Shown piece by piece: positions 7,542-46,391 of a stretch of 64,000 bases of DNA. Source of the DNA: a virus. Its lineage: Duplodnaviria > Heunggongvirae > Uroviricota > Caudoviricetes. Position 1 is the first letter of the stretch; the number at the start of each line of letters is the position of its first letter. The DNA is taken from IMG/VR virus record IMGVR_UViG_3300035696_000002; one strand, given 5' to 3'. The notes below the pieces were generated by a model. That model was not told where the DNA came from. It searched no databases and was given only the letters and a program-made list of their open reading frames with translations. The position numbers and the translations under genes are program-made.

Positions 7542-8517
7542 GTGTGTCAACTGTGGGCTGCCCGGCGTGGACGCCCACCATATCATCGAACGGAGGCTCT
7601 TTCCAGATGGCGGATACTATCTCGACAACGGAGTCACACTTTGTGAAGCGTGTCACCTTGCTGCCGAAGCTACGCTTATTGCATGTTCAAGCCTTAGAGC
7701 GGCAGCCGGAATCGAACAGGTGGTACTACCGCCCCACTTCTTTGCCGACCAAGATTACGACAAGTGGGGAAACTCCATCCTCCCAAACGGAATGAGGATG
7801 AAGGGCGAACTCTTCTACGAGGAGCCCGTCCAGAAAGTTCTCAAGCCTGTCCTGCACATGTTCACCGACAGGATCAAGTACCCCCGCACATTCCATTTCC
7901 CATGGTCGCCGAATCTCCAGAACGATGATCGGATGCTCCAGAGCACCGAAGGATGGGAAGGCACCGAAGTTGTAGTCACGGAGAAAATGGACGGCGAGGG
8001 CACCACGTTCTACCATGGCGACCTGCACGCCCGGTCACTGGAATTCGAGCCCCGGCCTGACCGGACATTCATCAAGGCGATCCACGCCACGGTCGCACAC
8101 GACATCCCGGAAGGCTATCGCATCTGCGGGGAGAACATGACGGCGGTGCATTCGATCCGCTATACTGATCTCCCGTCCTACTTTCTGATGTTCAACATTT
8201 GGGACGGCCTGACGTGCCTGTCGTGGGCCGAAACCTGCGAGTGGGCCGCGATGCTTGGCTTGTGGACGGTTCCTCTGATATACTGGGGGCCGTACAGTGA
8301 CGATCTGTGCAAGGAACTGTGCGACAAGATCAACCCGGTGACTCAGGAGGGTCTGGTCGTTCGACCTGCACGGGCGTTCCACATGCGTGAGTATCCTTAC
8401 GTCGTGGGGAAATGCGTTCGCCACAAGCACGTGACAACTGACCAGCACTGGGCAAAGAAAGCGGTGGAGTTCAATGGGCTTAGCAGACGAGACGGCTTCA
8501 AACACGGACTACAGTAA
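7477..8517 (+). CDS. HNH nuclease fused to RNA ligase (Rnl2-like)
   Basis: CVNCG..DAHH..NGVTLCEACH; KYPRTFHFPWSP, TEKMDG, GEN, FNIW, EGLVVR. Confidence 0.85.
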   Translation: MTQILLSRGNFREFTFARDKHKCVNCGLPGVDAHHIIERRLFPDGGYYLDNGVTLCEACHLAAEATLIACSSLRAAAGIEQVVLPPHFFADQDYDKWGNSILPNGMRMKGELFYEEPVQKVLKPVLHMFTDRIKYPRTFHFPWSPNLQNDDRMLQSTEGWEGTEVVVTEKMDGEGTTFYHGDLHARSLEFEPRPDRTFIKAIHATVAHDIPEGYRICGENMTAVHSIRYTDLPSYFLMFNIWDGLTCLSWAETCEWAAMLGLWTVPLIYWGPYSDDLCKELCDKINPVTQEGLVVRPARAFHMREYPYVVGKCVRHKHVTTDQHWAKKAVEFNGLSRRDGFKHGLQ

Positions 8518-11702: not shown

Positions 11703-12884
11703 ATGGGGGTATTCGGCGTGAAACAGGCTGCTACTAAGACCATGCTTGACCCAAGCCGTCGCAGTAATGACGCACAGAGTTTCGAGGCACAGTTGCGACG
11801 CAGGATCGTAGGTCAAGACGAAGCGGTCACAAAGGTCACCGAAATCTACCAAATGTTTCTCGCCGGATTGAACGCTCCCGGACGCCCTGTTGGCAACCTT
11901 CTCTTCCTCGGCCCCACTGGAACGGGCAAGACTCGCGTAGTGGAAGCCATGGCCGAAGCACTCTTCGGCGACGCCCGTGCCTGTATCAAGATTGACTGTG
12001 CTGAATTCCAGCACTCCCACGAAATTGCAAAGCTGATCGGTTCGCCTCCGGGCTATCTCGGACACCGCGAGACTCATCCACTGCTCACGCAGGAAGCATT
12101 GAACCAATGGTTCACTGAGAAACTGAAACTCTCGATCCTGCTCTTCGATGAAATTGAAAAAGCCAGCGACTCGCTCTGGCAATTGCTGCTTGGTATTCTC
12201 GACAAGGCAACACTCACCCTCGGCGACAATCGCCGCGTCGATCTTAGTCAGTGCATTATCATCATGACCAGCAATCTCGGCGGCAGGGAAATGAACGAGG
12301 ACAGCGGCTTGGGTTTTGCTCCGAAAGACACCATCGTCGATCCTTCTTGGGACGCGAAGGTTGATCGTCATTGCGTCGAAGCCGCACGCCGGAAATTCCA
12401 GCCGGAGTTCATGAACCGCATTGACAAGACAGTCGTGTTCAAGACTCTCCGCGACGAACATCTGGCACAGATTCTTGAGATCGAACTCGGCATGGTGCAG
12501 CAACGCATCATCATGGCTGCCGGAACAAACCAGTTCGTGTTCACTTGCACCGATGCGACCAAGGAAGCCCTGCTCAGAGAAGGCACCGACAAAAAGTACG
12601 GAGCCCGTCACTTGAAGCGTGCGATTGAGAAGCGGCTGGTGCATCCGATGTCCAGCCTCGTTGCGACCGGGCAGGTAAAACTCGGCGATTTCATCCGCGT
12701 TGATTACGATCCCCCGGCTGAGGGTGCCACGGAAGGTGAGTACTCTTTCCACAAGGAATCCGAGAACAACTTTGTGGCTCCTACACTCGAACGCTACTAC
12801 GGTTCCCCGGCACGCACCGACCTGAACGGGCCGCGTAAGGTCGCCCCCATCGCCCCGCCAAAGAGTGGAACGGGCATCATCTAA
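11703..12884 (+). CDS. ClpA/ClpB-family ATPase, second AAA module (D2) only
   Basis: IVGQDEAV, GPTGTGKT, LIGSPPGYLG, LLFDEIEKA, MTSNLG, PEFMNRID, YGARHLKRAI. Confidence 0.93.
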   Translation: MGVFGVKQAATKTMLDPSRRSNDAQSFEAQLRRRIVGQDEAVTKVTEIYQMFLAGLNAPGRPVGNLLFLGPTGTGKTRVVEAMAEALFGDARACIKIDCAEFQHSHEIAKLIGSPPGYLGHRETHPLLTQEALNQWFTEKLKLSILLFDEIEKASDSLWQLLLGILDKATLTLGDNRRVDLSQCIIIMTSNLGGREMNEDSGLGFAPKDTIVDPSWDAKVDRHCVEAARRKFQPEFMNRIDKTVVFKTLRDEHLAQILEIELGMVQQRIIMAAGTNQFVFTCTDATKEALLREGTDKKYGARHLKRAIEKRLVHPMSSLVATGQVKLGDFIRVDYDPPAEGATEGEYSFHKESENNFVAPTLERYYGSPARTDLNGPRKVAPIAPPKSGTGII

Positions 12885-15241: not shown

Positions 15242-15419
15242 ACTTACTATTATAGACGGGGTGTTTTTGCGGACGTGCGTTTTAGGCCCTATTCATGCGG
15301 GTTGGACGCACTAAGGCTTTTATTTTCAGAAGTGAAATATTTTTGTTGACAGAAAATTTCGACAAAAACACAGTTGCACAGGAATGTGCAATTTAGGAAA
15401 GTTGTACGGAAGTGTGCAA

Positions 15420-18400
15420 CTACTGATATCTCTCTTCTGCCTCTACCAAAGAATACGTTTCGTACCCGTGGGCGGGAGAGTGCCACTCAACATCTACTCG
15501 TGCGGTATCCACAGCGAGGAGACGGACAAAAGCACCAAGCCTACGTTGAGCATCGGCCTGAGAGAAGAATTCAAAGATAGCAACTTTACCGCCAGTTGTC
15601 ACCTTCAACCCCGCCGATTCTGCGTTATAGCGAACGTAACCAGCCCGCATCGCGAACAACTCCGCACCTTCGTAGCCGCCCAGACCTTTGGACTGCCCAC
15701 CGCCGCGAAACTTTCCTTTGCTCTTGAAACCGAGAGCACGGGCTATTTCAGCGTGCGTCCCATTCACTGGAATATTTTTCCCGTCTGGTGTGATCCAGCC
15801 CCGACCGTGGAGCGGGTAAGACAACGCTGTTGGGGTTATCGGCTGGGTCGCCGTTCCCGCCGCAGCCGCCGTAATACCGGGGTTCTTCGGATCGAACGCA
15901 CCCGTATTGCCCGTCGCAGACTTGATCTGGGTCGGTTCGAACACAACGTAGTTGAGTGAGGCATCCAATCCGCCGCGTCCGTACATTTTTTCGGCACGGG
16001 CCGCGTAGTCTTCATCGCTCTGACCAACAAATTGAAGCTCGCCGCCCTCGACGGTGATGTAGCCATCGTAGCCAGCAGACTTAATGTCGTTCACGAGGTT
16101 GATGCCAAGCTGTTCATCGGTGGACACAGACTCCATGCCCTCTACGAACGCCCATTTGCCTTCGCGGAACAGTTTGTAGATGTGCTTTGGATCATACCCC
16201 TGTAGTTTCGCCGTATGCTTGCGGAGCCATTCACGCACCCAGCGACGCGAGGCTGGATCACGGAAATCAAGCGGGTTTTCCATCTTCAGGTAAACCGCTT
16301 TGACGTTGCCGCCTTCGCGATCCTTCCCGCCCGGATCGTAACTGTAGGTGAACTGCTCCGTGTACATCGGATTCGAGGCGAAAAAGAATCCGGGCCGGAG
16401 TGTAAGCTCCGTAGTCTTCGGACGATCAGCTTCAACCTTGTCCTTGGCCTGTTGGAGGGTGCCGAACTCGCCGCCGTCCGGGAAGAGCTTGAACTTTCCT
16501 TCCTGTTCGACGATTACGGCCTGCGTGCGGCCCTCACCCTGACCCACGGCACCCTTGCCGCCATCAAAGTCGCTCCACTTCCAGTACAGCGGACGTTCCA
16601 AGCTGAATGCATCGAAGTCTCGCGGCGATCCATGGTAAACCACCTGCGGATTGCCGTTCGCATCCACAACTTTGGAATTACCGAACCACGCTTTGAACTG
16701 CGGAGTGTCCGTCACCCTTTGTGGAGCCCGAGCCGGACTGGCTGCCGTGTGCACATCCTCTTCAGTCGAGGAGATCAGCTTCACGACCTTTGCTTTGCGT
16801 GCCCGATACTCGAACAACGTGTGCTCGCCGCCCTTGGCCTTACCGCTCCAGTAACCCTGAGCAAGGCGGGCAGCCTCCGGGTCATCTATGCTGTCCCAGA
16901 TGTACGTTGACAACTCGGAGTACCAATCCATGTCGTTCTTCTCGACCTTGCCGATAGGTTCGACGGCGTAGACGTAGTCTTCGTAGCCGCCCGCATAGTC
17001 GATCAGAGCCGGATCATCCACCATATAGACGCTATCCTTGCGAGGCAGGGCACCTTTCGGGCGATGCAGTTCTACGATGTCTTCAGTCAACTCGACATCG
17101 GGTTCTGGGGCGGTCACATACCCGCCCGGCTGGGGCGTAAGGGTGTCGCCCGGCTGGAATTTCTTCCGGCTGCCGTGGTACAGAACCGTCTTCGCTGTCT
17201 TTACCGATCCGTAGTGTGGGTCGTACTCTTTATCAACCTCATCCCTCGTCAGAACCGCACCAAAGTAAGCATCCCGCTTCACGGTAGTCTCGATGAGCGT
17301 CCCCTTCGGGGTGACGAGCCATGAGTGTGGACGCCAGAGTCCATCCGGGGACAGAGCGAATCCGTTCGCAACTTCTCCAATGCCCTTCTCCATGAGGCAG
17401 CGACTATTTCCGTGGCACTGGTTGTTCCGCATCTTCTGGAGCTTCGATCTTCCCTTCCAGTACCGACCGCGAGTGAGCAACCGCTGCACTTCGTCAGGTG
17501 GGTTGATCTGACCTCCGATCAAAACTTCGAAGCCGCCATAACCGAGTATCTTGTCCCGCAACTTGACCAAGTCGGGACGAGTCCGCAACTCAGGCTCGTT
17601 CATCTCCTCAAGCCGCTGCTGCCATTCCTTATCCACTGCAAGATCGGCAGCAGACTTGGGATTGGGGTCTACCGACGCATACTTGCTGTTCACATTGAAG
17701 ATTTTGTCGGTGAACTGGTAGCTCTTCAGCTTCGGGTATTTCGCCTTGATGCTCGTGACGATGGAGTTCGGTGCGTGCACGCCGTAGGACTGCATTTCAA
17801 CGGTGTTTTCATCTGGGTCGATGACAGCATACCCACGAAGAAGCTTGCTATCGTTCGGAATTCCCAACTCTTCTGCCCAACTGTCGTGGCTCCACGCGAT
17901 TTCCTGATCTTCGATGTAATCTTTGCCGCCACGGGACATCCAAATCAGGTAATTGCTCGCCGGAACGCGGGCAGCCGTTTTCTCCTGATCTTTTCCAAGG
18001 GCCTTGCGGATAATGTTCCCGGAGTTCTGGAACAGTTTCAGGAGGCCGGGGTGGTACTTGCTGGAATTCGTCCCGATGTCCTCCATGACAGTCTCGTAAG
18101 GCACCCAGTTCAAAGACGCGGTCTCGTCCTTGTGCTCCAGATCGTGTGTGCCGCCCGGCTGCGGGTTAAGGCCGAACTCCTGCGACACCACGCCGATGAA
18201 GTTGTGATAGTTGAACCCACCGAAGCCGGAATAGGTGAAGGCCGGGATCAAATTGATGCCGCCAGTGTACCCGGTCTCCTCGGCAAGTTCCTTCTTGGCA
18301 CTCTCAGCCGGGCCAAGGCCTTCTTGCAGGGCACCGCCGATTGTGCTGTACACGTTCGGGTGATCGACGTAGTTGGAACGCATGGCAAGGCAGATGGTGC

Positions 18401-21400
18401 CCTTTGCGGGGCACACAGGGAGGATACCGGACGCCTGCCCGGACTTACCGCCCCAGAATCCCTGCTTAGCCAGCCGCCCAGCCGGGAAACGCTCCTCAGC
18501 GTCAGCCAAGGAGTACTCGATAAAGTTGCCACGGCCCTCTTCGACGCCAACACGGGCGATATCTACCGGGAAGCGGCGGAGGATTTCGCCTGCACGGCGA
18601 TAAGCGTCTGCCTTGTCGGCAAACTGCATGAAACCGATGCTCTTGTTCGGGTCGATGACGACGCGGACGTATCCCTTGTCGATGGCCTGCTTGGTGAGAT
18701 CGTGTCCACGGAAGCCAAACTGCATTGCCATGGTTTCGTGGTCAGTATCGGAGCAATCCACCCAGTTTCCGGTTGGAGTCACCCAGCCATCGTCGCGAAT
18801 CTCCATGGGCATAGGGACGCCACGCATTTTCGGGCGGGCGAGGCGAACGCCGGGCTTCCCGCAATTCAGAGCGATTGCGGCAACCTTTGATCCCTGTGGA
18901 TCACGCACCATAAGCGTGCCCCGGACGGTTTTGAATCCACGACGGCTGTACCACGACGTAAGCTGCTCATCGTCGAGGCCCTGACCATCACCAAACGCAT
19001 CCGGCGTCAAACTCATCTTCACGCCATGCTTGTCAGCCAACGAGCACAGCCAATCCAATGCCCGTGAAGCGTTGCCTTTGCCCCGGAACAGGGAGGTGAT
19101 GTCGCTGATGTGAATCTTGCCGTCGAACGGACGGACTTCGATCACGACTTGTTCATTCCATACACGGTCGCGGTGCCCAAGTGGGTTAGGCCCAGTGCCG
19201 GAACGGAAATCATTCATGAATTCTTCGAGGGCCGGGTTCTTTGACTTCAGAGAAATCTCTGCGGAGGTTTTCCACGACCGGGATTCAAGCGGACGTTGAG
19301 CAACGACTTCTTTCTCCGGGTATAGCTGCTGGAACTCGTCAATAACCTCGTAAGGAACGCCGCCGTAATCGGAACTCTCCCGCAAGAAAATCTGAGTGGA
19401 GGCCTTACGGGCATCACCACGGGGAATGCGGTCAAATGAGTGCCCGGAGGTGGGCAGGCCCATGGCTTTGAACCATTCCAAGTGTCCCTTCTCCGATGGC
19501 ACGCCACGGAGCACTTCAACCTGACCATTTACGATGGCCCACAGGTCGAATGTCTGCCGTCCATGAAGGGCTGTCTTCACGCCATACTCTTTGAATGACG
19601 CCGGAGTCCAGAAGACCTTGTAGTGGTCTCCGTACAAGCCTGTGGCATCGCACTTTGTCTTGCCGGGCTCTTCCACACGTAAAGCCACGGCCTCAGCGAC
19701 CGGGTATCTGTCGAAGGTGAAAACTACCTGCTCCCCGTGGAGGCAAAGCGGGCGATCCTTGAACGCCCAGAACTCTTCCTTGCCGCCAGAGTCCTCAAAG
19801 AAGTGATCGCGGGCGAAGGAGGGGACTTCAATCGTGAAGGCCTTCTTGCCCGCCACAAATTCTCCGGTGTCTTTCTTGACCTGCCGGGCCTTGTCATCCC
19901 ACATCTCAATCAGGCCGGGGTCTTTGATGTTCGTCGCTTCGAGCGGCGTGCCAATATGCTTCTCCGTCCATTCACGAAGCAGCTTGTGGAGTGCCTGCTT
20001 GTTTTCGAGATCGGCCAGCCGGGCCGTGAAGACTTTTACAAGTTTGCCTTCCTTCAAGGCCTGCTTGACTTTCTCAACCATCGCCGGAATGGGCTTTCCG
20101 ATCACCAGAGGCGTGAACGGCACAACATCTTCAGCGAGCGTGCCGTCGAGATCGACACCGATCCATGGACGCCATCTTCCAGCTACCAGATCATCCTCTT
20201 CAGCAGAGAATTTCAGGGGGACATCATGCCCGTTGTACCGGAGCTTCGGTGCCACAATCGGCTCCCCGACCTGTTTGATCTGGCTCGACTTGAACACGAT
20301 GTAATCGTCGCCCGCTTTTAATGCGTGCGGTTCGATTACGTTTTTGATGATGACCCCGTCATACCCATTTTTGTGTGCGAATTCCGCAATGAGGTCTGAA
20401 CTGACGCCCCGCTTCTTCCACCAGTCACCACCGAGGAAGCCTTGCTGCATCTCTGGAGGTGCAGGAATGTTGTCGTAGAAGTTCCCTTCTGCGTCCACGA
20501 TGTACGGCTTGTTAATCGTCAGATATGCTTGGTGAACCTGCGGGCCATAAGCTCTGGCAACCTCTGGTGACGAGGTGAAGAACTCCCCGACCGTGTACTG
20601 ATCGTTCTTGATCTTGCGATTCAGCTTTTGCCCGACCGGGATTCCCCGATAAACGGGGCCATACTGCTGGGCGACCTTAGCGGCTGCGGCTTTCCCACTC
20701 ACAACACGGAAATACGTCGGCGGCAGAGGACGAGTCAAACAGACGTTCCCCGGCAGATCATTGATGTGGGCCAATTCTGTAAGGACATCGTCGGCGACGC
20801 CGTCCTCGGGGTCAACGATCAGGTTGTCGAGCGGGACATCGCGGACTTCTACGACCGTCTCGCATCCCTTTTCGCCTGCATACCAGAGAGCGTTCTGGAT
20901 TTCGTTCGTCAGGTAGAGATATTTTGTCTGCCCGGCATTACCACCCATGCCTGCCTTGTTGGGCTGCCAGCCGTGCTCGATCAGTTCCTTGGCGTTCTCT
21001 GGGCAAGTGCCGTGATAGAGCGGCGGAGCCAGTTCTGCGGCAGTTTTCGATGCACCCTCAGAGAACCACGGCATGTCAATCGTGTCGCCTGCTGTGACGG
21101 TACGGAGATTCTTCGGCGGCTTCTTCCATTCCTTTTCACCCTTGTACTTGTAGCCCGTGATCTGAATCTCTGCTCCCGGAACAACGTTAATTTCCTTCTC
21201 ATCAGCGGCCACAAGGTTCACGTATGCCGTCCGATTCCAGTCAACTTTGTTGGGCGAGTCGAGGATGCCCCGAAGCATGATGATGTGTGGGTGCCCAGCG
21301 GCAAGTTCTTCGTGCACGTAAGCATTGTTCTCGTCGTCAGACCAGAAAATGCCCGTGCCCTTCTCCTTGTACCGCCCCTTGTTAATCTCGTTGAGGCTGA

Positions 21401-24400
21401 CGGTGCCCAGTCCACGGTAAATCGTCAGCGGAAACTGGAGTGAATGGAGGCGATTCTCCGTAATCTCCCACGAAGCCCGGAGCCATTCCCAACCCACCTT
21501 GTCCAGCCACGCTTCACGTTGAGCCTCGGACAAAGTGTTCCAATCGTTGCCCTCGGCCTTCACTCGCTGGCGTGCCTCAGCCTCAATCTTATCCCAATCA
21601 CCCTGTGCCTCTTCGAGGCCAACATTGGCCCATGCCAGAGCGTCTTCCAGATCGGGCATACCCGATGCACTCTTGCTGGTCTTGAGTTCTTCGTACAATT
21701 CGTCGGTGTTTGTGTCATCGACTACTTGTTTGTTAGGCCTCTTTACGGGAACATACGCCTGAATGGTCTCGTCCCCACGCAGCTTCGCCGCCGCTGCACG
21801 GTGGTTTCCATCCAGTACAGTGCCACTGAATATAGAGCCGTTCGGATAGGAATTCATCACAATCGCCGGGAAGGGGGTGTCCATGTCCGCATATTGTTGA
21901 GCAACGGCGGGGCTGTAGTCATCGCCCGGTGTCAGAAGATCGACAGGTACATCTTTCAATTCCCACCGTGTGCTGGCACCCGTCTTAGGGTCTACGCCCA
22001 TCAGTTGATATGCCTCACGGAGGTCGGTCATGAATGGGCGTGAGTCACCGTAACGAGTGCTGTTGTCCAATATGTGCTGTGCGACGACTTCTCCGCTTAC
22101 TGCTTGCCCAGCGGTGACACTCGCCATGCGGAAATCGCCGGGTTGCTTTGCCTTATCCCCAGTCGCCAGTTCATAGAACTTGATGAGGTCTTCATCCGAG
22201 GTGATGTACTGCGACAGCGTGTTGTGAATACGGTGGTCTAACGCCTTGGCCTGCCCGATTGGCATGACCCGGAGAACTTTCGCCTTCTTGGGGTCTTCCA
22301 CCCAGAACTCGTTCCCGAATCCACGCTTTACCTGCCAGTATTTGTCACGGGGCACGTCGCTCATGTCGATCTGAGCCGCATACGCACGAGACTTGCCGTA
22401 ATAGTCCGCCCAGTTGTCGAGGTGGGACGTAATCATGAGTTTCCCGGCGTCCGCTGTGGCATCGCCCATGCTGGACATGTCACGCGGCCCCTTCTTCGGG
22501 TCAATCGTGAAGTTTGGGTCGGTCGTTACGTGCCAATACGTGCCATGCTTGATCTCGTGGAAGAAATCCTGATAGAACTGCTCAAACGAACCCGCTTTGC
22601 GTGCCTCGGCAGCGAGGCCGGACAGCGACGGCGGAATTTTCTTCAGTTCTTTGTAACCCCCGGTCTTCGAGGACAACTTTTCGGGCTCATCTTCGACATC
22701 GTAGCCTGATGGATCACGATCTGATGTGATCGAAGGTGGAGTCTTGCCGCCGTTGACGCCCTTCCACATGTAGTTGTCAGTTTCGTCGCCCTGTTCGGTA
22801 TCGTAGACGTAGCTGAAACCCATGGAATCCCAGAATCCTCTGGAACTACCCGCCCCGGTATCGCCTGCGTACAGCCGCACGAGTTTTATGTTCTTGGGGA
22901 GCCCGGCTTCCCATTGCATGTAGAACTTTCTGCCCAGACCCTTGCCGCGATCCTTCGCCGGGATCACAAACATGTCGATCCAGATCGTGCTTCCGTCCCC
23001 ATGGGTCTCAATGCTGGGCTTATCCTTTGCCCCGGTTTTGTCGAGCCACTGGAGAGCCTGTGACGGCGTCGGTTCTTCTTTACCCGCGATGTCTTCCAGT
23101 CTATCGAGGGCCATCTGAGCCATTTCCTGATCGAATGGGTTGGACGGCAGCGGCTTGTCGAATTCTGGCTGAGCGGAATCGCTGTGCTGCGGAATCATGT
23201 ACGACTGATCGGGGCCTGCGGTCTTCGTGGAGCCTGATTTTCCAGTCCCGGACAGTTGGCTGAGCGTATTGCTGCCGCCTTCGATGAACCAGCTTGCCAA
23301 ATCACTCCGCTGATGCACAATGTTGAGCACGCGGTCGATCAGTTGCAGCTTTTGCTCCGCCGTGGGGGCCTCGGAAAGCTGAATCGCGAGATTGGTGAGC
23401 TTGTTCATGGCGAAATCGCTGATCCGCCAGTTGCCCTTCTCGTCATCAAAGAAATGTTCGAGCTTTTCGAAGTAGCCGTCAGGGTATTGGTCACCTGTGA
23501 TGCCTTCGGCATACTGGATCGGGTCTTGTTGCTCATGTCCACAGAGAATCGTGTTGACTTCCAGCTTGTTGATGTTGTTTGCAATGATCCAAGCGATGTC
23601 GTCGATGCCCTTTTCGTCACGGACGAAGCCTGTCTTCGCGTAATCGTTCCAAATTTTCTTCAGACGGGCAGCGGGAACGAGCGTCCACTTCTGACGGTAA
23701 TTTTTCTGCTTCAAATGAGCAGTGTACTCTTCGATAATTTGCTGGGCGGCGGCATCCTGTCCTTCGATGTGTGAATACACGTCCGCTTCCTTCTCGAAGA
23801 GTCCCGGTGCGAGCGTTTCCAGAGCAGGCATGCCCTCGACACCCTTGACTCGTTCGTTGACAACCGAGTAGGCGTTGGTTTCTTCTCCCTGTGCGGGGTC
23901 TTGGTACTGGGTGTCGCTGAGCGGAGGCGTCTTATGCGAGGCCGTCTTGCCCGGCGTGAACTCTCCGGCGATTTCCTGCCATTTGTCGTGACCCTCAGCG
24001 AGTAATTTCTTCAAATCTTCAAGCAGATTTTCGCATTTCGAGAACTTCCACTGCCCCAAAGCGACGGCGGCGTCGCGTGCGATCCGCTGGGCGTTGTTGT
24101 AGACAGTCAACTGAGCGTGGGCGTCGGCGTATGCCTGACATTTTACCTTCAAACGGGCAACCGCGTCCTCAAAACTGAGGGAGATCGTGCCTTCTTCCTT
24201 GTGCACGTTGTAATTGTTTCGCTGATTGCCTTCCATTTCGCGGACGAAACCATACGGGTTCTGGAGAACACGCAAAACCTTCTCTACTTTGTCCTTGACG
24301 TTGCCCCACTGGCCCCGGAAACCGCTGAAATTTTCTGACATGCGGTGCGTCAGGTCTCCGGTGTGCTCAACAACGAAACTAAGGACGCCGGACGCAAGCT

Positions 24401-25445
24401 GATCGTGCTGAATTTTCAGCATCGCCTCTTCGGGAGCACCACGTTGGGCACTCGCAAGCTGCTCAAACGCCGCATCACGCTGGTAATCGTGCTCAGTCAT
24501 CTCGATTCCGCGACGATCATAGGCCCCGGTCTTGGGGGTCTTCCACTGAATGACGGCGGGATTGAGAATGAGAATACTCTGCCCGTTGGCCGACATGGGT
24601 TCGTCGATAAAAGCCCCGTCATAGCCGAGTTCTCGCATTCGCTTGGCGATCTCCGGGTAGTTCCAGAGGTAAGAGTAGTGGATTCCCTTCTTGCTCACGA
24701 GATCATCCACGGTCAAGCCCTTCTGATCGAGTAGCACAACCTTCAACACGTCCCACAGTGCGTTACGATCCTTCGGCGAGAGCATTTTCTTTGGGGTCAA
24801 TGTCGCCGTGAAAACGTTCGGGCCGTAGTCACGAGCGTCACCGGGGTCTTCTGCGAAATAGATTTCGTTGTGCGATGGTGGTGTGTCGGAATCCGTGCCA
24901 TGGTATGCCCGTATCCGCTCCAGCCCGGCAGAGGTCTTTTTAACTTCGACCGGATGGAACTCCCCCAAAGGGACTTGCACCTGCGACTTGTCTTTTCTGG
25001 AAAGTGTCACGGCATACACCGTGAAGGCCAGCCCGGCCAAAGCGTCGCTGCCTTCGTACTTGGCAGCGGCCTCGGTCGTCACGTAGGCGACTGTGACGTG
25101 CGGGGTGTATTCGAAATCGTCCGGGCGAACGCCGATGGCTTTGTCGATGGCGTTCTTCAGGTTCTCGATCTCGGGAGTCTTTTCAACGAGGGCGACAATC
25201 GGTGTGGTGGAGTGCCCTTCAAAGCCGTGGAGCTTCCCCAGCGTCACCTCGAACGGTTCAATGTCGCGGAGGGCCTGAGTGAGGGCAATCACATCCTCTT
25301 CGACGCCATACTTCAGGGTGATGTGGGGCTCAGTTTCCCGCCCGTCTCCGGCGAGTTCTGCTTCGGGGATTTCCTGCCCGACCTTCAGCACCGTCTCGGC
25401 GGCTTTGGGCGGCAGATTGATCTGTGTGAGTGCGTTCTTCGGCAT
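15420..25445 (-). CDS. giant polyvalent protein: 2H phosphoesterase, multiple ART-like domains, 2 GNAT, ParB-like, HAD, Nudix, Cys-His (transglutaminase-like) domain
   Basis: HITL/HVTV; YHGT, YRG, YHGS motifs with GYDG; RGKGLG and RGKGNA; LDGNHR; DLDGT; GGALQEGLGPAESAKKELAEETG; CHGN..HSW; FKAWFGNSKVVDANGNPQVVYHGS. Confidence 0.88.
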   Translation of the reverse strand: MPKNALTQINLPPKAAETVLKVGQEIPEAELAGDGRETEPHITLKYGVEEDVIALTQALRDIEPFEVTLGKLHGFEGHSTTPIVALVEKTPEIENLKNAIDKAIGVRPDDFEYTPHVTVAYVTTEAAAKYEGSDALAGLAFTVYAVTLSRKDKSQVQVPLGEFHPVEVKKTSAGLERIRAYHGTDSDTPPSHNEIYFAEDPGDARDYGPNVFTATLTPKKMLSPKDRNALWDVLKVVLLDQKGLTVDDLVSKKGIHYSYLWNYPEIAKRMRELGYDGAFIDEPMSANGQSILILNPAVIQWKTPKTGAYDRRGIEMTEHDYQRDAAFEQLASAQRGAPEEAMLKIQHDQLASGVLSFVVEHTGDLTHRMSENFSGFRGQWGNVKDKVEKVLRVLQNPYGFVREMEGNQRNNYNVHKEEGTISLSFEDAVARLKVKCQAYADAHAQLTVYNNAQRIARDAAVALGQWKFSKCENLLEDLKKLLAEGHDKWQEIAGEFTPGKTASHKTPPLSDTQYQDPAQGEETNAYSVVNERVKGVEGMPALETLAPGLFEKEADVYSHIEGQDAAAQQIIEEYTAHLKQKNYRQKWTLVPAARLKKIWNDYAKTGFVRDEKGIDDIAWIIANNINKLEVNTILCGHEQQDPIQYAEGITGDQYPDGYFEKLEHFFDDEKGNWRISDFAMNKLTNLAIQLSEAPTAEQKLQLIDRVLNIVHQRSDLASWFIEGGSNTLSQLSGTGKSGSTKTAGPDQSYMIPQHSDSAQPEFDKPLPSNPFDQEMAQMALDRLEDIAGKEEPTPSQALQWLDKTGAKDKPSIETHGDGSTIWIDMFVIPAKDRGKGLGRKFYMQWEAGLPKNIKLVRLYAGDTGAGSSRGFWDSMGFSYVYDTEQGDETDNYMWKGVNGGKTPPSITSDRDPSGYDVEDEPEKLSSKTGGYKELKKIPPSLSGLAAEARKAGSFEQFYQDFFHEIKHGTYWHVTTDPNFTIDPKKGPRDMSSMGDATADAGKLMITSHLDNWADYYGKSRAYAAQIDMSDVPRDKYWQVKRGFGNEFWVEDPKKAKVLRVMPIGQAKALDHRIHNTLSQYITSDEDLIKFYELATGDKAKQPGDFRMASVTAGQAVSGEVVAQHILDNSTRYGDSRPFMTDLREAYQLMGVDPKTGASTRWELKDVPVDLLTPGDDYSPAVAQQYADMDTPFPAIVMNSYPNGSIFSGTVLDGNHRAAAAKLRGDETIQAYVPVKRPNKQVVDDTNTDELYEELKTSKSASGMPDLEDALAWANVGLEEAQGDWDKIEAEARQRVKAEGNDWNTLSEAQREAWLDKVGWEWLRASWEITENRLHSLQFPLTIYRGLGTVSLNEINKGRYKEKGTGIFWSDDENNAYVHEELAAGHPHIIMLRGILDSPNKVDWNRTAYVNLVAADEKEINVVPGAEIQITGYKYKGEKEWKKPPKNLRTVTAGDTIDMPWFSEGASKTAAELAPPLYHGTCPENAKELIEHGWQPNKAGMGGNAGQTKYLYLTNEIQNALWYAGEKGCETVVEVRDVPLDNLIVDPEDGVADDVLTELAHINDLPGNVCLTRPLPPTYFRVVSGKAAAAKVAQQYGPVYRGIPVGQKLNRKIKNDQYTVGEFFTSSPEVARAYGPQVHQAYLTINKPYIVDAEGNFYDNIPAPPEMQQGFLGGDWWKKRGVSSDLIAEFAHKNGYDGVIIKNVIEPHALKAGDDYIVFKSSQIKQVGEPIVAPKLRYNGHDVPLKFSAEEDDLVAGRWRPWIGVDLDGTLAEDVVPFTPLVIGKPIPAMVEKVKQALKEGKLVKVFTARLADLENKQALHKLLREWTEKHIGTPLEATNIKDPGLIEMWDDKARQVKKDTGEFVAGKKAFTIEVPSFARDHFFEDSGGKEEFWAFKDRPLCLHGEQVVFTFDRYPVAEAVALRVEEPGKTKCDATGLYGDHYKVFWTPASFKEYGVKTALHGRQTFDLWAIVNGQVEVLRGVPSEKGHLEWFKAMGLPTSGHSFDRIPRGDARKASTQIFLRESSDYGGVPYEVIDEFQQLYPEKEVVAQRPLESRSWKTSAEISLKSKNPALEEFMNDFRSGTGPNPLGHRDRVWNEQVVIEVRPFDGKIHISDITSLFRGKGNASRALDWLCSLADKHGVKMSLTPDAFGDGQGLDDEQLTSWYSRRGFKTVRGTLMVRDPQGSKVAAIALNCGKPGVRLARPKMRGVPMPMEIRDDGWVTPTGNWVDCSDTDHETMAMQFGFRGHDLTKQAIDKGYVRVVIDPNKSIGFMQFADKADAYRRAGEILRRFPVDIARVGVEEGRGNFIEYSLADAEERFPAGRLAKQGFWGGKSGQASGILPVCPAKGTICLAMRSNYVDHPNVYSTIGGALQEGLGPAESAKKELAEETGYTGGINLIPAFTYSGFGGFNYHNFIGVVSQEFGLNPQPGGTHDLEHKDETASLNWVPYETVMEDIGTNSSKYHPGLLKLFQNSGNIIRKALGKDQEKTAARVPASNYLIWMSRGGKDYIEDQEIAWSHDSWAEELGIPNDSKLLRGYAVIDPDENTVEMQSYGVHAPNSIVTSIKAKYPKLKSYQFTDKIFNVNSKYASVDPNPKSAADLAVDKEWQQRLEEMNEPELRTRPDLVKLRDKILGYGGFEVLIGGQINPPDEVQRLLTRGRYWKGRSKLQKMRNNQCHGNSRCLMEKGIGEVANGFALSPDGLWRPHSWLVTPKGTLIETTVKRDAYFGAVLTRDEVDKEYDPHYGSVKTAKTVLYHGSRKKFQPGDTLTPQPGGYVTAPEPDVELTEDIVELHRPKGALPRKDSVYMVDDPALIDYAGGYEDYVYAVEPIGKVEKNDMDWYSELSTYIWDSIDDPEAARLAQGYWSGKAKGGEHTLFEYRARKAKVVKLISSTEEDVHTAASPARAPQRVTDTPQFKAWFGNSKVVDANGNPQVVYHGSPRDFDAFSLERPLYWKWSDFDGGKGAVGQGEGRTQAVIVEQEGKFKLFPDGGEFGTLQQAKDKVEADRPKTTELTLRPGFFFASNPMYTEQFTYSYDPGGKDREGGNVKAVYLKMENPLDFRDPASRRWVREWLRKHTAKLQGYDPKHIYKLFREGKWAFVEGMESVSTDEQLGINLVNDIKSAGYDGYITVEGGELQFVGQSDEDYAARAEKMYGRGGLDASLNYVVFEPTQIKSATGNTGAFDPKNPGITAAAAGTATQPITPTALSYPLHGRGWITPDGKNIPVNGTHAEIARALGFKSKGKFRGGGQSKGLGGYEGAELFAMRAGYVRYNAESAGLKVTTGGKVAIFEFFSQADAQRRLGAFVRLLAVDTARVDVEWHSPAHGYETYSLVEAEERYQ

Positions 25446-25480: not shown

Positions 25481-25885
25481 TTAGAACAGTGTGTGTCCCT
25501 TGTAGAGGGCGTGCTTCTTGAAGATACCACGGTCGGAAATGTACTGACGCCACTCCTCAAACGCCGGGCCGTGGTCGTCTTTCATGTTCGTGGCGAGATG
25601 GATCATCTCGTGAGCTAAAGTACTCAAAACCTTGATCCAATCCGCCTTTTCATCCAAAACAATCTCGAAATCGTGGCGGCAGCGGGGGCAATTCTTCTGG
25701 TGGGTAGCCCAAGTGGGTGTGGCTGGGCTGTCAGCCCAACCGAAATAGCTATCTTCGATCTCCCGCTTCTCTTCACCGGGTCGGGCGTATCGAACGCATA
25801 CCCGTTTTGACTCAGGGCAGTTGCCCGTAAAGAATCGGCGATTGATCTCCCGGTACCATTTGAGCAGTGTCCGATCAGACCTCAC
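25481..25885 (-). CDS. SprT-like zinc metalloprotease
   Basis: YREINRRFF..TLAHEMIH..HGPAF. Confidence 0.8.
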   Translation of the reverse strand: MRSDRTLLKWYREINRRFFTGNCPESKRVCVRYARPGEEKREIEDSYFGWADSPATPTWATHQKNCPRCRHDFEIVLDEKADWIKVLSTLAHEMIHLATNMKDDHGPAFEEWRQYISDRGIFKKHALYKGHTLF

Positions 25886-25912: not shown

Positions 25913-27418
25913 CTATTTGGTGGTTTGAGTTTTTAGTTGTTGTGCCAAGGCTATGGTGCGTTTTTGCTCATCGGGGGTCATTTGAGCATACCCACGCTCA
26001 CCGCCGCCGACCTGACGTACAGCTTCCAGCCAATACGGATCATCTTGCGATGCTGGCCGCTGTTGGACTTGATTCATACTGCCCTCGGGCTCCTGTTCCT
26101 TTGTCTTCCAGAAGTCCTTCAGGCGGTCATCGACTGCATCAGCCCGATGTACCTTTAATACCGCAGTGCGGGCCTTGAGGTAAGTGAACCACGCACCAGA
26201 TTTGCTCCCAGCCGCCGCTTGCTTGGCGACCTCCGCTACTTCGTCCACGGTAAGTGACGAAGCTGCCTTGCCTTGGGATTGCAGGGCCAGTCTTTCCGCC
26301 AGTTTGGTCAGGGCCGAGGTAATGTCGAACCTCAAGTCCCCCTTCTGGCGTCCTTCTACCGATTCCTGAAGCTGTTCCAGAGTAGCCTCTCCCGCCTGTA
26401 CGATGTCATTGAGCTTTTTCAACATCTGCATCTCGGGCTCAGTGAGCTTACCCTTCTCCGGCTTGTAAATCAGGTCGTGCGTCACCTCGGCCCATGCGTG
26501 CATGAGCACCGAAGCGATTTGAATCTCCACGTTCGTGTCGGCGTACCGCAATTCGTCCTTGTGAAGCGTCTCAGGACGCAGTTGCACGAGGTAGTGCGTT
26601 GCCACATAGCCCATGGAATTGTCCGCGTCGCGATCTTCGGGGAAGTGTTTCGCCGGGCGGACTGATACGAACAATTGTTCGATGATTTTTCCTACGGCCT
26701 CACGATCAGCCGGGAGATACAGGGCGACACGGACGCCAGCGAGGTCAACGATGTCGGCGTAAATGTCGCTGAACGATTGATAATTTCGCGTCTTGTTCCG
26801 CTTCACCAATTTGTCGTACAGCTTGTGGGGCCGCTTCGCTCGATGAGTGACGATGGCTCGAATACCCGCCTCTTGCAGGGCTTCGTCGAGGGTGTCCCGC
26901 ATCTGGTGAGCAACCTGATCGTAGAAATCGACCTCGTGCTTGTAGAGTTTCACGAATGCGTCGATGATCGGGTTGCCGCTGGCGGCGGTCTTCGCTTCCT
27001 GTGCTTTTTGGACGGTATCGAACAGATATTCGAACGGAACTTCGTAGATTTCACCGAGGTTGGTGTCTTCCCAGCCCTCGTCGTAGTGAGCCAGATACGA
27101 GGCCTCGGCGTCTTCCAGCGAGTCGTACCCCAGCATCACCTTGTACTCGTCGAACTCGCCCTTGTCATCGTTTTGCTCAACAACATAGACAAATTCGGCA
27201 TCCTTGTCCGGGCCAATGTACACGTCCACTTTTTCTTCATCGCCCGCAGCCGTAGTATCGGGGATGTATCCGTAGTCGGCGTACATTTTCCGCTTCCACT
27301 TCTCCCCCTCAGGGTTCACCCCCACCCGCTCGCTGCCTTTTGGCCACTCGATTACGATGGGAATCCCCCTAAATTCAGTACTATGCATGTTAGGGAGTTT
27401 GTCTGCCGTTTTGTTCAT
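25913..27418 (-). CDS. inorganic pyrophosphatase fused to RelA/SpoT-type synthetase domain
   Basis: IEWPKGS..DYGYIPDT..GDEEKVDVYIG..DEYKV; then RAK..KL, DLAGVRV, GYVATHY, EIQI..HAWAEVTHDLIYK. Confidence 0.88.
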   Translation of the reverse strand: MNKTADKLPNMHSTEFRGIPIVIEWPKGSERVGVNPEGEKWKRKMYADYGYIPDTTAAGDEEKVDVYIGPDKDAEFVYVVEQNDDKGEFDEYKVMLGYDSLEDAEASYLAHYDEGWEDTNLGEIYEVPFEYLFDTVQKAQEAKTAASGNPIIDAFVKLYKHEVDFYDQVAHQMRDTLDEALQEAGIRAIVTHRAKRPHKLYDKLVKRNKTRNYQSFSDIYADIVDLAGVRVALYLPADREAVGKIIEQLFVSVRPAKHFPEDRDADNSMGYVATHYLVQLRPETLHKDELRYADTNVEIQIASVLMHAWAEVTHDLIYKPEKGKLTEPEMQMLKKLNDIVQAGEATLEQLQESVEGRQKGDLRFDITSALTKLAERLALQSQGKAASSLTVDEVAEVAKQAAAGSKSGAWFTYLKARTAVLKVHRADAVDDRLKDFWKTKEQEPEGSMNQVQQRPASQDDPYWLEAVRQVGGGERGYAQMTPDEQKRTIALAQQLKTQTTK

Positions 27419-30274: not shown

Positions 30275-30387
30275 GGCGGCTTATCGGACGTTGCTTTTGT
30301 TCTCAGCAACTTGGCTCGGTAACAGTATTATCCTAGATACGGCACTTTCGTGTGGGTAACCGCGTCGAAATTGTACTGAGGAGTAAT

Positions 30388-31230
30388 ATGGAACTTGCAG
30401 ACTTTCAGAAGAAATTTCATCTCGATCACCCCGAATTCATTGACGCATCTGCACCGCTAGTTACGGCGGCTATGGATATTTTCGACACCCCGCTTCGATC
30501 CCCATTGCAGGAACGCGACCTCGTGGCTCGGCATTTGGCTCAGTCGGTAGTTAGCTCCTTTCAAAGCATTCAAATTCTCACATACGAAGGTCACGGAGCG
30601 GATGCCATGTGCATAGTCAGAAGTATGCTCGAACGCACCGTCGCTCTCGTAGCTTTTGAGCAGTTTCCCACAATGGCTGAAGACTACTGTGATTTTCGCT
30701 GGATCAAAAAATGGAAATCTTATCAGCGTGCTCGCGGAACGCATTTAGACGTGCTTCCCGATGAACAAGTGCGTGAACTCGAAAGTAAGTACAACACAGT
30801 GGTGGGTAAATTCACGTTACCAAGAGGAGGTATTCGAGGATCGTGGTATGCGTGTGATCTTCGCACCCTTTGTGACCAAATCGACAAAAGTATCAACCGA
30901 GTGCTGTGGGTTCCGATTTACGATGCCGCTTACAGGGTCGGCTCCGATTTTGAGCACGGTGACATCGCTGGTTTAGAACGTCAAGTTGACATCGAGAAAG
31001 ACCCGTACAACCTTGATCTCCCCCCATCTGATAATTTCATTACCCCCGCAATCTCTACGGCTCACTGGTTGACACTGGCGGCTTTGGTTGCTTACGTTAG
31101 CATCACTGGTATTGACAAGGGGGCAGTGACCGCACAAATCCACGACACCTACAAAAAGGTGTGGGACGTGGGATCACGAGAACACACGGTAGCCAAGAAG
31201 GGCTTCGACGACACTGTAGCATCCCTATGA
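30388..31230 (+). CDS. DUF5677/HEPN-like helical protein
   Basis: RSMLE and YRVGSDFEHG (Rx6H); GAGGAG RBS; more AT-rich than flanks. Confidence 0.6.
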   Translation: MELADFQKKFHLDHPEFIDASAPLVTAAMDIFDTPLRSPLQERDLVARHLAQSVVSSFQSIQILTYEGHGADAMCIVRSMLERTVALVAFEQFPTMAEDYCDFRWIKKWKSYQRARGTHLDVLPDEQVRELESKYNTVVGKFTLPRGGIRGSWYACDLRTLCDQIDKSINRVLWVPIYDAAYRVGSDFEHGDIAGLERQVDIEKDPYNLDLPPSDNFITPAISTAHWLTLAALVAYVSITGIDKGAVTAQIHDTYKKVWDVGSREHTVAKKGFDDTVASL

Positions 31231-42751: not shown

Positions 42752-44416
42752 TTATGACTGTCCGATTACCTGATAGTTCCATGTTGCGGATGCGGCAGGC
42801 GGTGTGGTGACATTGACCGTGAAGCCTGTCCAAGCACCAGCGGAGCCCTGATAGGTGACCCAGACGCCGCCGAGGGCGGTAGGATCGGCACCCACAGCCG
42901 TCAAAGCGACTGTCGGTGCGTTGGTGCCCGTGTAAGCGAAGTTGAAGCCCACTGCCGCCGTGGAAGCCGGGTTGGTCATTGTGACCGTTCCCGCCATATC
43001 CGCGTTGGTAGCACCACCAGCCAGCCCGGCGACGAGGTGTCCATGCGATGAAACTGAGATCGCAGCGGTACTGTTGACGTACCACTGTTGGAGATCGCCA
43101 GTTCCAATGCCTGTAATCTTGAGACCAACCGCCGCAGTGCCCGGAGCGACAGTGACAGCCCCGCCGCTAAGGGCGATTGTGCCGCCGCCTGAGGTTTGAA
43201 TCTGAACACCGCCGCCAGTTGCAGTGACACCGATGTAGTTGCTGCCCGTGTTATCCCACAGAACAACGCCGTCTGTCGCCAGTGATGCGTTGACGAGAAC
43301 ACCCTTGCCGCTAACAGAACCGCTGAGATATGAGCCGCCTGAACCGCCTGTGATAGTCACACCGCCAGCACCATTGCAGGTGACGCCGATGCCGCCCGTA
43401 CCGTCTTCGACGATAGTGAGACCCTGAGACGAGGAGTCCAAAACGGTGAAACCAGAACCGAGTGAGTTGATACCCGGAGCTTGCACGTTCGCACCTTCAA
43501 CCGTGATACCTGCGGAGAACGTCGGGTTGCCTGCCAGAGTTGCATACAGGGCGAGGTTCGGTGTGCCCGTGACCTGCGAGTAGGCAATACTCAGGGCTGA
43601 CTGGCTGATCCACGTAGTCGCGGTGCCCGTTGAACTGAGCAACTGACCAGACGTGCCGAGGGAGCCTGTGTGATCCTTGAAACCGCCGACAAGATTCAGA
43701 TTACCGTTGTAGTCGATCCAAACGGTCTTCGTGCTGGAGGGCGTTGCACCGCTTGCTGTGGTGAAGTCCGCGATGTCCGGGCTTCCAGCGTTGCCGCCAG
43801 TGACCGCAAGGGCGGGAAGACCGCCAATCGAAACGCTGCTGCTGATGCTGATGCCGTTGACATTCAACAGGCCGCTCGTTTTCATGCTGGCAACGATTGT
43901 GCCTTCGTTTGAGCTATACCAGTCTTGGGCCGAAATCGCGATGCCGCCCGATGCACTGACCGTGAGGGCCGTTGTCGAAACCGGGCTGCCGTTGGCAACG
44001 TTGCCGATAACCACGGCACCTGTGCCGCTGACGCTGCTGTTTGTCGCACCAGCGAATGCACCGCTGTTGTTCCACTGGATCGTGCCAGCCGCACCACTCG
44101 GGTTGCCGCCGCTAACGCTGCCCGGAACCCACGCGGAGCCGTTCCATTCGATGACTTGGCCGTTCGTTGCACCTGACTGCTGAAGTGCTGTCAGAGGGAT
44201 GTTGGTGAGAGAAGTCGGGTTGGCGAAGCCGAGGACAACCTGATCGCCGTTAATTCCGGCGACGCTGAGAAGCTGACCTGTGCCAATCGGGGCCGAGTTC
44301 GGCAAATAGATGACAAGACCGCCGCCGATGGACTGCGAGGCGAGTGTGGCTCCGCCTGCAATCGAACCTGTAAGCTGAAGTGTGCCGTTGATAACTGCGT
44401 TCTGTTGGGTTGCCAT
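42752..44416 (-). CDS. putative tail fibre / virion structural protein
   Basis: Gly/Ser/Thr-rich beta composition; GATNGQVIEWNGSAWVP and GTSGQLLSSTG fibre-type motifs. Confidence 0.65.
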   Translation of the reverse strand: MATQQNAVINGTLQLTGSIAGGATLASQSIGGGLVIYLPNSAPIGTGQLLSVAGINGDQVVLGFANPTSLTNIPLTALQQSGATNGQVIEWNGSAWVPGSVSGGNPSGAAGTIQWNNSGAFAGATNSSVSGTGAVVIGNVANGSPVSTTALTVSASGGIAISAQDWYSSNEGTIVASMKTSGLLNVNGISISSSVSIGGLPALAVTGGNAGSPDIADFTTASGATPSSTKTVWIDYNGNLNLVGGFKDHTGSLGTSGQLLSSTGTATTWISQSALSIAYSQVTGTPNLALYATLAGNPTFSAGITVEGANVQAPGINSLGSGFTVLDSSSQGLTIVEDGTGGIGVTCNGAGGVTITGGSGGSYLSGSVSGKGVLVNASLATDGVVLWDNTGSNYIGVTATGGGVQIQTSGGGTIALSGGAVTVAPGTAAVGLKITGIGTGDLQQWYVNSTAAISVSSHGHLVAGLAGGATNADMAGTVTMTNPASTAAVGFNFAYTGTNAPTVALTAVGADPTALGGVWVTYQGSAGAWTGFTVNVTTPPAASATWNYQVIGQS

Positions 44417-44419
44417 GGG

Positions 44420-44950
44420 TTACATACTCCTGACGTAGACACTCACAAGGTTTGAGCTTGCGGTGAAGAATACTTGCCCGGTCGTCTGTGTGAAGACCGA
44501 GTTTGCCAGCACAAGAAATTCGACATCCGGGCTGGTTTCGGTTGGGTTCGGGATGGTGTAGCCGACCACATCCGCCTTACGGCCCGTGCAGGCATCCGGT
44601 GCCGAGAACAGGGTCAGCGTCGAGTTCACATACGCCGTCCAGTAGGTCGGGTTGCCTGTTGGAATCTGGTTCAAGTTCGGCGTCGTCGCCGTGGCGACAT
44701 AGGCGGTGCCAGTGTAGTTGACCACTGTACCCTGCGTATACGAGATCGCCGAGTTCCATGCCGGGGCCGAAGCCGGATCGGATGCGTAGAAGGTCACGAG
44801 GTCACGGCCACTGGCAACGAAGTAGTTGCCGTTGAGCGGATCGCAGACGGTAAACAGCGGGTTGAGAATCGTCGAGCTTCCAACTGGGGCGGGAACGCCT
44901 GTCGGCTGAAGTGTGATCGGTGGAACGTTCGGTACGAGTGTCTGTGCCAT
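44420..44950 (-). CDS. virion protein with CBM5/12-like carbohydrate-binding module
   Basis: AWNSAISYTQGTVVNYTGTAYVA..P....YW. Confidence 0.6.
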   Translation of the reverse strand: MAQTLVPNVPPITLQPTGVPAPVGSSTILNPLFTVCDPLNGNYFVASGRDLVTFYASDPASAPAWNSAISYTQGTVVNYTGTAYVATATTPNLNQIPTGNPTYWTAYVNSTLTLFSAPDACTGRKADVVGYTIPNPTETSPDVEFLVLANSVFTQTTGQVFFTASSNLVSVYVRSM

Positions 44951-44963
44951 GGTGATTTATTCC

Positions 44964-45194
44964 TTATTTCGCTGCTGTGTTTGCGACGTGGTGCCCGATG
45001 TGCAGAACCTTATGCACGAAGTCACCCCAGAAAATGTGTAGGAGGAATTGATGCACCGCTGCCGCCGCCCTTGGTGCCATGAACTCAAAGACCCCCCAGC
45101 CTGTACTGATCGCGGCGAAATGGATTTTCACCAGATTTCGCCTTACCCACGACTGAGCCTTTACGGCATCGGTCGCAACGTCTTTGGTGTCCAT
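44964..45194 (-). CDS. small membrane-associated protein
   Basis: ORF in operon. Confidence 0.45.
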   Translation of the reverse strand: MDTKDVATDAVKAQSWVRRNLVKIHFAAISTGWGVFEFMAPRAAAAVHQFLLHIFWGDFVHKVLHIGHHVANTAAK

Positions 45195-45201
45195 CGACGA
45201 C

Positions 45202-45342
45202 TTAGACCTTGCTCTTCGCCCAGCTTAGAAAGCTGTCGAGTTTAGCGGCCAAAGTAGGGTAATTCGTGCTGAATTTGACGCCGCCGACGAAAATGGCGAA
45301 TGCAACGGCAGCCTCAATAGCAATCTTGATAAGTCCAAACAT
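45202..45342 (-). CDS. 46-aa membrane peptide (not in ORF track)
   Basis: MFGLIKIAIEAAVAFAIFVGGVKF..; AGGGGG RBS. Confidence 0.45.
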   Translation of the reverse strand: MFGLIKIAIEAAVAFAIFVGGVKFSTNYPTLAAKLDSFLSWAKSKV

Positions 45343-45392
45343 GGAAGTGTCCCCCTACTACAGAGAGCGGAAAGATCGAATTTTTCGGGGGC

Positions 45393-45441
45393 AAAAAAGA
45401 AGACTGGCTTTAGGCCCGATTCGAACGGACGCTAAAGCCAG
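45393..45441 (-). terminator. terminator hairpin carrying a tRNA T-arm-like loop
   Basis: CTGGCTTTAG..GTTCGAATC..CTAAAGCCAG followed by TCTTCTTTTTT. Confidence 0.6.
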
Positions 45442-46376: not shown

Positions 46377-46391
46377 TCAGGCTCCGACCGA

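Follow-up and report, generated by a model that had tools for sequence, protein, structure and literature searches.

We analyzed a 64,000-nucleotide stretch (hereafter the window) of the IMG/VR virus record IMGVR_UViG_3300035696_000002, a member of the Caudoviricetes, in which a minus-strand gene encodes a 501-aa protein combining an N-terminal InPase pyrophosphatase domain with a RelA/SpoT-family synthetase domain. We give about even chances to the reading that this protein is a head-packaged, two-enzyme effector of the polyvalent type, which would be cut at K-T-A motifs and delivered together with the DNA by a megaphage. An original prediction, made from the letters of the sequence alone, had proposed an injected and processed effector. 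This proposal gained real but circumstantial support from a conserved motif in the inter-domain linker, a conserved operon, the same KTAA motif in the cultured acidobacterial phage Tunturi_5 and the occurrence of InPase in portal and minor-head proteins; packaging and injection themselves are steps that we infer. The accompanying idea of a protein held inactive until processing gained no support. The fusion is a real feature and both of its domains look functional as judged from their residues. The protein appears to represent a new architectural variant within the polyvalent injected effectors. It would bring to this class a candidate cleavage code that is conserved, and a hydrolase encoded by the phage that may serve as a late antidote.

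The source record spans 463,033 bp and was rated 100% complete by CheckV. Since it is a complete viral record and a terminase gene lies in the window at 47118..49166, the prediction had correctly placed the fusion in a phage. The genome also carries 68 tRNA genes. An acidobacterial soil host is likely, because an Acidobacteriaceae metagenome-assembled genome (MAG) encodes the nearest bacterial synthetase and the nearest cultured phage infects Tunturiibacter.

Domain architecture and active-site residues

The proposed pyrophosphatase–synthetase fusion held up, as the Pfam families InPase and RelA_SpoT both scored above their gathering thresholds. RelA_SpoT (PF04607) covered residues 192-321 with an E value of 9e-14 and 52.2 bits against a cut-off of 27. 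The motifs named in the prediction lie where it had placed them (KTAA at residues 143-146, RAK at 193-195, DLAGVR at 225-230, GY..H at 270-275 and EIQIAS at 298-303), and in agreement with the proposed lack of a hydrolase domain, no HD or hydrolase Pfam family was detected in the 501-aa protein. NCBIfam returned RelQ and RelA/SpoT matches below threshold only, PADLOC only a weak match to the candidate single-gene system PDC-S33 (33 bits), and the ESM Atlas generic RelA/SpoT clusters only. The same architecture is common to more than 100 metagenomic proteins; none of 50,697 deposited phage genomes had a record covering 80% of the query. For residue-level analysis, we aligned 36 homologues with 42-63% identity.

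The N-terminal part of the protein is a member of the phage InPase clade, which has the fold of family I pyrophosphatases, and the acidic residues conserved there appear to be retained. R31, Y49, G50, D60, E62, D65, E81, Q82, E91 and K93 were invariant in the alignment. Foldseek matches of the domain model (pLDDT 87) were modest, with a best E value of 3.9e-4 and TM values of 0.43-0.47, and the PDB entries listed were all inorganic pyrophosphatases. At the sequence level, the D-x-[DE]-x-x-D pattern is common to the phage protein and the InPase copy in the Pa193 portal. This portal (PDB 9B41) was also a strong PDB sequence match of the domain; we rejected it as a solved InPase structure, as the portal is modelled only to residue 528 and its InPase-like C terminus lacks density. 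InPase domains are likewise carried by portal and minor-head proteins of other phages, and Iyer et al. (2017) suggested that they may act on nucleotide-like phosphoesters (PMC5512222).

The synthetase looks catalytically complete from its sequence, with a full donor-ATP and Mg site and the acceptor-stacking tyrosine, because the ATP-binding, Mg and acceptor residues are invariant and could be mapped to RelP/RelQ. The invariant positions were R193, K195, K203, R207, D225, G228, R230, G270, Y271, H275, E298, Q300, H314, Y318 and K319. The mapping combined an alignment to RelP/RelQ-type chains (PDB 2BE3 and 6EWZ) with residue functions described for SaRelP (PMC5794853, PMC7983052), for which R78, K80, K88, R91, D107, R112, Y151, E174 and H190 are the ATP-binding and catalytic positions (PMC5794853). 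On this basis, R193, K195, K203 and R207 are counterparts of the ATP-phosphate binders, R193 and R230 of the adenine sandwich, D225 and E298 of the Mg ligands, Y271 of the acceptor-stacking tyrosine of the G-loop and H314 of the ribose contact. Degenerate or inactive domains were considered and ruled out from the alignment, as the catalytic residues are invariant in the 36 homologues. The replacement of EIQIRT by EIQIAS, singled out in the prediction, is real, with A302-S303 in place of the usual R-T. It is no local oddity, as the two residues are invariant in the phage family and in bacterial relatives, and EIQ[IV]AS is a trait of the whole subfamily including stand-alone bacterial members. 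A role for the R and T of EIQIRT was not found in PMC5794853 or PMC7983052.

For information about the substrate, we compared sequence profiles and folds. Profiles of the family searched against the PDB reached RelP/RelQ chains only and no toxSAS, and Foldseek with the whole-protein model (pLDDT 79) ranked RelQ/RelP best (2BE3, E 1.4e-7; 5DEC, target TM 0.80), with CapRel close behind (5.6e-7). The profiles favor the (p)ppGpp-making RelP/RelQ group, and CapRel appears about equal by predicted fold. As for the acceptor, formation of (p)ppGpp or (pp)pApp seems slightly favored, modification of tRNA CCA ends is a possibility of clearly lower probability, and something else accounts for the small remainder.

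K-T-A motifs in the linker and beyond

The linkers between the InPase and synthetase domains of the 36 homologues were hypervariable, with 13 to 68 mostly acidic residues. A K-[TVIFM]-[AGS] motif was present in 33 of them as compared to 5.9 expected from shuffled linkers, usually 7-12 residues ahead of the first synthetase helix. In the whole-protein model, pLDDT dips at residues 144-147, between two helices. The InPase protein gp272 of phage Tunturi_5 carries KTAA at the same junction after an acidic linker despite a different downstream domain (GP88). We also considered KTAA as part of the InPase fold and rejected this explanation, as KTAA is missing from InPase in the Serratia phage Hera portal and in Agrobacterium phage Atu_ph07; its absence from such distant copies indicates a clade-specific motif. 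The N terminus of the stand-alone bacterial homologue P0113 falls two residues past the post-KTAA cut point of the phage protein.

Related sites were enriched in the 3341-aa polyvalent protein encoded downstream. It contains six KT[AS][AGS] sites versus 0.39 expected, a number reached in 0 of 500 shuffles, and its orthologue in contig L005 contains seven versus 0.25 expected. Sites within 15 residues of homology-block borders made up 37% compared to 17% for random positions (p ~0.01). KTSA, KTAS, KTAG, KTAA, KFSA, KVAA, HTAA and VTAG were seen at several of these borders (polyvalent protein gene, 15420..25445), and the site at residue 500, before HKTPPLSDTQY, is kept with its domain in L005 and L003. 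Across the genome, motif density per 1,000 aa was 1.76 in the operon, 0.66 in a 42-90 kb block around the terminase gene and 0.137 elsewhere, with 0.11 predicted by composition, corresponding to a 13-fold enrichment in the operon and an approximately 5-fold enrichment in the terminase-containing block. That block occupies window positions 42752..64000 and continues to ~89116; it includes, for example, an open reading frame (ORF) at 57286..59145 with two sites, and most of its large ORFs match no family. A PHROGs search likewise gave no hits for several large ORFs close to the terminase gene.

Conserved operon partners: a peptidase and a polyvalent protein

By gene layout, the InPase–synthetase gene is the first gene of a tight three-gene operon, followed by genes for a SprT-like peptidase and the giant polyvalent protein. 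Its upstream neighbor is a divergent, exonuclease-like gene. Gene order was kept in related contigs and IMG/VR loci, and in nearly all InPase-bearing viral loci, the following ORF measured 1400 to over 3200 aa. The peptidase slot was occupied by a SprT-like protein in the window, L002, L090, L092, L095 and L096 and by a Prok-JAB (JAB) protein in L003, L005, L094, L097 and Tunturi_5. The presence of two unrelated metallopeptidases in one slot suggests a need for a peptidase activity. Since the motif is common to SprT cassettes, JAB cassettes and the terminase block, a head protease is indicated as its reader at least as much as the adjacent peptidase. The features of a polyvalent system seen here were an InPase domain, a RelA/SpoT domain and adjoining 2H, NUDIX and ART-PolyVal domains, all in a virus, with the metallopeptidase as a separate gene.

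A phage-encoded alarmone hydrolase

The prediction had found no obvious antitoxin nearby. This was true of the immediate neighbors, a SprT-like peptidase and an exonuclease-like gene, but needs qualification, as the phage encodes its own HD_4 small alarmone hydrolase (SAH) 94 kb away and outside the window. The 185-aa SAH (G000:C1:43368-43925, plus strand, corresponding to L006:1468-2025) has the H...HD...D pattern and matches RelA/SpoT family models in the portion that covers the hydrolase. According to published work, SAHs degrade alarmones and can remove tRNA 3'-pyrophosphate, reversing toxSAS products. When the SAH protein was used for a close-relative scan of IMG/VR, no match was obtained. 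HD_4 was present in only three of five related large viral records, so the link between SAH and synthetase is not obligatory.

Proposed mechanism and alternatives

In the mechanism that we favor, the head would take up both this protein and the polyvalent protein. The K-T-A-[AS] motifs on either side of the synthetase would serve as cutting sites, and the protein would enter the cell along with the DNA. A cut at KTAA would leave an N terminus two residues from that of free-living bacterial homologues. In the cell, the synthetase would use ATP to pyrophosphorylate a purine nucleotide at its 3'-OH, resulting in an immediate stringent-like shut-down, which the phage SAH and the 68 tRNA genes could later reverse or bypass. 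Given that the InPase domain also occurs in fusions with unrelated partners, it would act independently, with pyrophosphate (PPi) or a nucleotide polyphosphate as its substrate. The complete chain of events, with a RelA/SpoT-family synthetase residing inside the phage head among other enzymes of a cargo, freed from the InPase domain and the tail at a clade-specific K-T-A-[AS] code, injected, later reversed by the phage SAH and bypassed by tRNA supply, seems conceivable at rather less than even chances.

Several points weigh against such delivery. Packaging, cleavage and injection are all steps that we infer. The synthetase reaction releases AMP rather than PPi, which leaves no evident chemical reason for the fusion. 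The motif is missing from the Tunturi_5 polyvalent protein and from the first of two large ORFs downstream in L002. Moreover, the same linker motif accompanies SprT-type and JAB-type peptidases alike and may therefore be read by a protease other than the neighboring one. We picked the 42-90 kb block after the cluster of sites there had been seen. No head protease or capsid gene was recognized with the Pfam families Gp23, Peptidase_S77 and Phage_capsid; Phage_capsid had no match in the genome, and the Gp23 and Peptidase_S77 searches were uninformative, as they matched neither the genome nor the controls. The SAH is missing from two of the five related large records, one of them rated 100% complete and the other 58%. 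Finally, the sequence singles out no one substrate: profiles reach only RelP/RelQ, while the fold search ranks CapRel about equally.

The protein might instead act only in the cell that produces it, with the K-T-A motif being merely a linker feature. It could tune (p)ppGpp like an auxiliary metabolic gene or exclude competitor phages, as proposed for the PhRel toxin of mycobacteriophage Phrann. Phage-borne SAS toxins acting within the cell are known, an intracellular synthetase could be balanced by the SAH of this genome, and the upstream neighbors belong to DNA metabolism (exonuclease-like here; in Tunturi_5 a helicase). We nevertheless regard intracellular action as somewhat unlikely: the gene always occurs with the peptidase and the polyvalent protein, and the ART-PolyVal, 2H and InPase types were defined in virion-delivered proteins. 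Fusions of InPase with portal and minor-head proteins occur elsewhere, conservation of the linker motif greatly exceeds chance, the motif is also common to the terminase-containing block, and there is no adjacent antitoxin. An offensive toxSAS, in which the freed synthetase would pyrophosphorylate the 3' CCA of host tRNAs and the phage would restore or protect its own translation by means of its 68 tRNA genes and its SAH, would fit the large tRNA set, the ability of SAHs to remove the tRNA modification, the position of the tRNA pyrophosphokinase CapRel among the best fold matches and the replacement of the R-T of EIQIRT and the R of GYRS across the subfamily. It appears unlikely, as subfamily profiles reach (p)ppGpp-making RelP/RelQ chains only and no toxSAS, and bacterial relatives are solitary without a partner antitoxin. 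In addition, the 36-sequence alignment shows conservation of R254, K257 and H275 close to the acceptor loop, which, judged by RelSeq–GDP contacts, would suit a nucleotide 5'-phosphate.

Chemical cooperation between the two domains would offer another explanation, with InPase trimming or degrading a product or substrate of the synthetase (for example, its 5'-gamma-phosphate or 3'-diphosphate) as a built-in hydrolase or antidote. Conservation of the fusion in the metagenomic proteins, the lack of an HD hydrolase in cis and the proposed action of InPase on nucleotide-like phosphoesters would all agree with this idea. We find it very unlikely, as the same InPase and linker motif occur on the unrelated GP88 in Tunturi_5 and on other partners, InPase is found on portals too, the closest synthetase relatives work without InPase and conservation of the linker motif suggests that InPase and synthetase come apart.

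RelA/SpoT homologue (RSH) synthetases are known as stress regulators, as toxins of toxin–antitoxin modules and as a toxin secreted by the type VI secretion system (T6SS). To our knowledge, phages have so far been known only to carry RSH synthetases as intracellular toxins, or as their targets. If virion delivery is correct, the protein would be the first virion-delivered alarmone or tRNA-pyrophosphorylating enzyme, and phages would impose a stringent-like or translation arrest ahead of any phage gene expression. This would also explain the alarmone hydrolases and full tRNA sets of some megaphages. Should the linker motif be a cleavage code, virion-delivered cargo could be found by a simple rule at the sequence level across a large group of uncultured soil megaphages. 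The cultured relative Tunturi_5 on Tunturiibacter makes packaging and cleavage testable.

Relationship to known systems

Our findings fit the model of phage polyvalent proteins put forward by Iyer, Burroughs, Anand, de Souza and Aravind (2017), which predicted packaging, injection and processing by a metallopeptidase (PMC5512222). The adjoining 3341-aa protein is a textbook case, with 2H, NUDIX and ART-PolyVal domains. The present system differs in that the two enzymatic domains form a separate small protein, the peptidase (SprT-like or JAB) is a separate gene rather than an internal MPTase domain and a specific K-T-A-type linker motif is conserved. Tunturiibacter phage Tunturi_5, a cultured acidobacterial jumbo phage, has the same layout in gp271-gp273 (PP885688; PMC11924767; L089:8409-14805), where an exonuclease gene is again the divergent neighbor of genes for a JAB peptidase, for an InPase protein with acidic linker and KTAA, and for a polyvalent protein with NUDIX, ART-PolyVal and GNAT domains. 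Unlike in the window, its InPase is fused to GP88 (PF17338) without a RelA/SpoT synthetase, and the peptidase precedes the InPase gene. The existing annotation of the Tunturi_5 cassette names minor tail, minor head and MutT proteins only.

Among characterized synthetases, RelQ and RelP (PDB 5DEC, 6EWZ and 2BE3) are the best profile and fold matches; they share with the phage protein the lack of a hydrolase domain, and all described RelP ATP-binding and catalytic residues are kept. Differences are the low identity of ~20%, the changes of EIQIRT to EIQ[IV]AS and of GYRS to GYVA, the InPase fusion and the helical tail. The toxSAS proteins FaRel, FaRel2, PhRel, PhRel2 and CapRel and the T6SS effector Tas1 are likewise synthetase-only RSH domains, which serve as conflict weapons. 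CapRel is a top-ranking fold match of the phage protein, and Tas1 offers a precedent for a delivered RSH toxin. In contrast to these, the phage gene lacks an adjacent antitoxin or immunity gene and a profile match to solved toxSAS chains, and delivery would be by the phage particle instead of a toxin–antitoxin module or secretion system.

A bacterial stand-alone SAS of ~415 aa from the Acidobacteriaceae MAG (P0113) shares 51% identity with the phage protein over residues 151-380, contains EIQVAS and has an N terminus coinciding with the post-KTAA fragment. It differs from the phage protein in lacking InPase and in its C-terminal domain with an LRNxLVHG motif (Rx4H, HEPN-like); bacterial relatives in general have a different C-terminal domain in place of the phage helical tail. 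Such relatives were found in 315 species representatives from many phyla as chromosomal or prophage genes and also on small prophage-like IMG/VR contigs. No neighbor family occurred in more than four of 80 loci examined for a conserved partner (L009-L088). From this distribution, a role in conflict seems more plausible for the bacterial gene than a housekeeping function, because it is solitary in many phyla and has no conserved partner gene. The stand-alone relatives (L007:6001-7257 and L009-L088) may constitute a single-gene SAS-HEPN conflict system.

Gene boundaries and surrounding features

The long start used for the synthetase gene lies upstream of the database gene call and is supported by K7, L8 and P9, which are nearly invariant among homologues. 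Its TAG stop is directly followed by TGA, and code 11 gives a normal reading of the genes in the window. No Pfam family matched the C-terminal tail. Coordinates are compiled in Table 1.

Table 1 Positions in the window of the fusion gene, its protein segments and the other operon elements
Feature	Position	Strand	Remarks
InPase–RelA/SpoT synthetase gene (P0001), 501 aa	25913..27418	-	Open ORF; ATG start, TAG stop at 25913-25915
InPase domain, residues 11-130	27029..27388	-	Pfam PF18823, E 5.7e-37, 127 bits (cut-off 26.8)
KTAA, residues 143-146, inter-domain linker; candidate protease cleavage or docking motif	26981..26992	-	
RelA/SpoT synthetase-only (SAS) domain with flanking helices, residues ~150-356	26351..26971	-	Pfam core 192-321
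Second linker-type motif KAAS, residues 384-387, after synthetase helices	26258..26269	-	GK-TAS-LT in most homologues
C-terminal helical tail, residues 388-501	25916..26257	-	Conserved only among phage homologues, missing from some
SprT-like zinc metallopeptidase gene, 134 aa, HEMIH motif	25481..25885	-	Pfam PF10263, E 2e-6; 27 nt after synthetase gene
Polyvalent protein gene, 3341 aa: 2H phosphoesterase, NUDIX, three ART-PolyVal and other modules	15420..25445	-	Pfam; 35 nt after peptidase gene
Terminator-like hairpin, 29 nt after polyvalent gene	15374..15391	-	Consensus scan only; sole minus-strand one of operon

Other genes near the cassette, all on the plus strand, encode an RNA ligase with an N-terminal HNH-like part (7456..8517), a ClpB/ClpX-like AAA+ protein with AAA_2 and ClpB_D2-small domains (11703..12884) and a DUF5677 protein (30352..31230). 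An AAA+ gene is located near the cassette in L002 as well. Outside the window, ARAGORN identified three CTA-anticodon, amber-reading tRNA genes among the 68 of the genome (G000:C1:238747-239065, minus strand).

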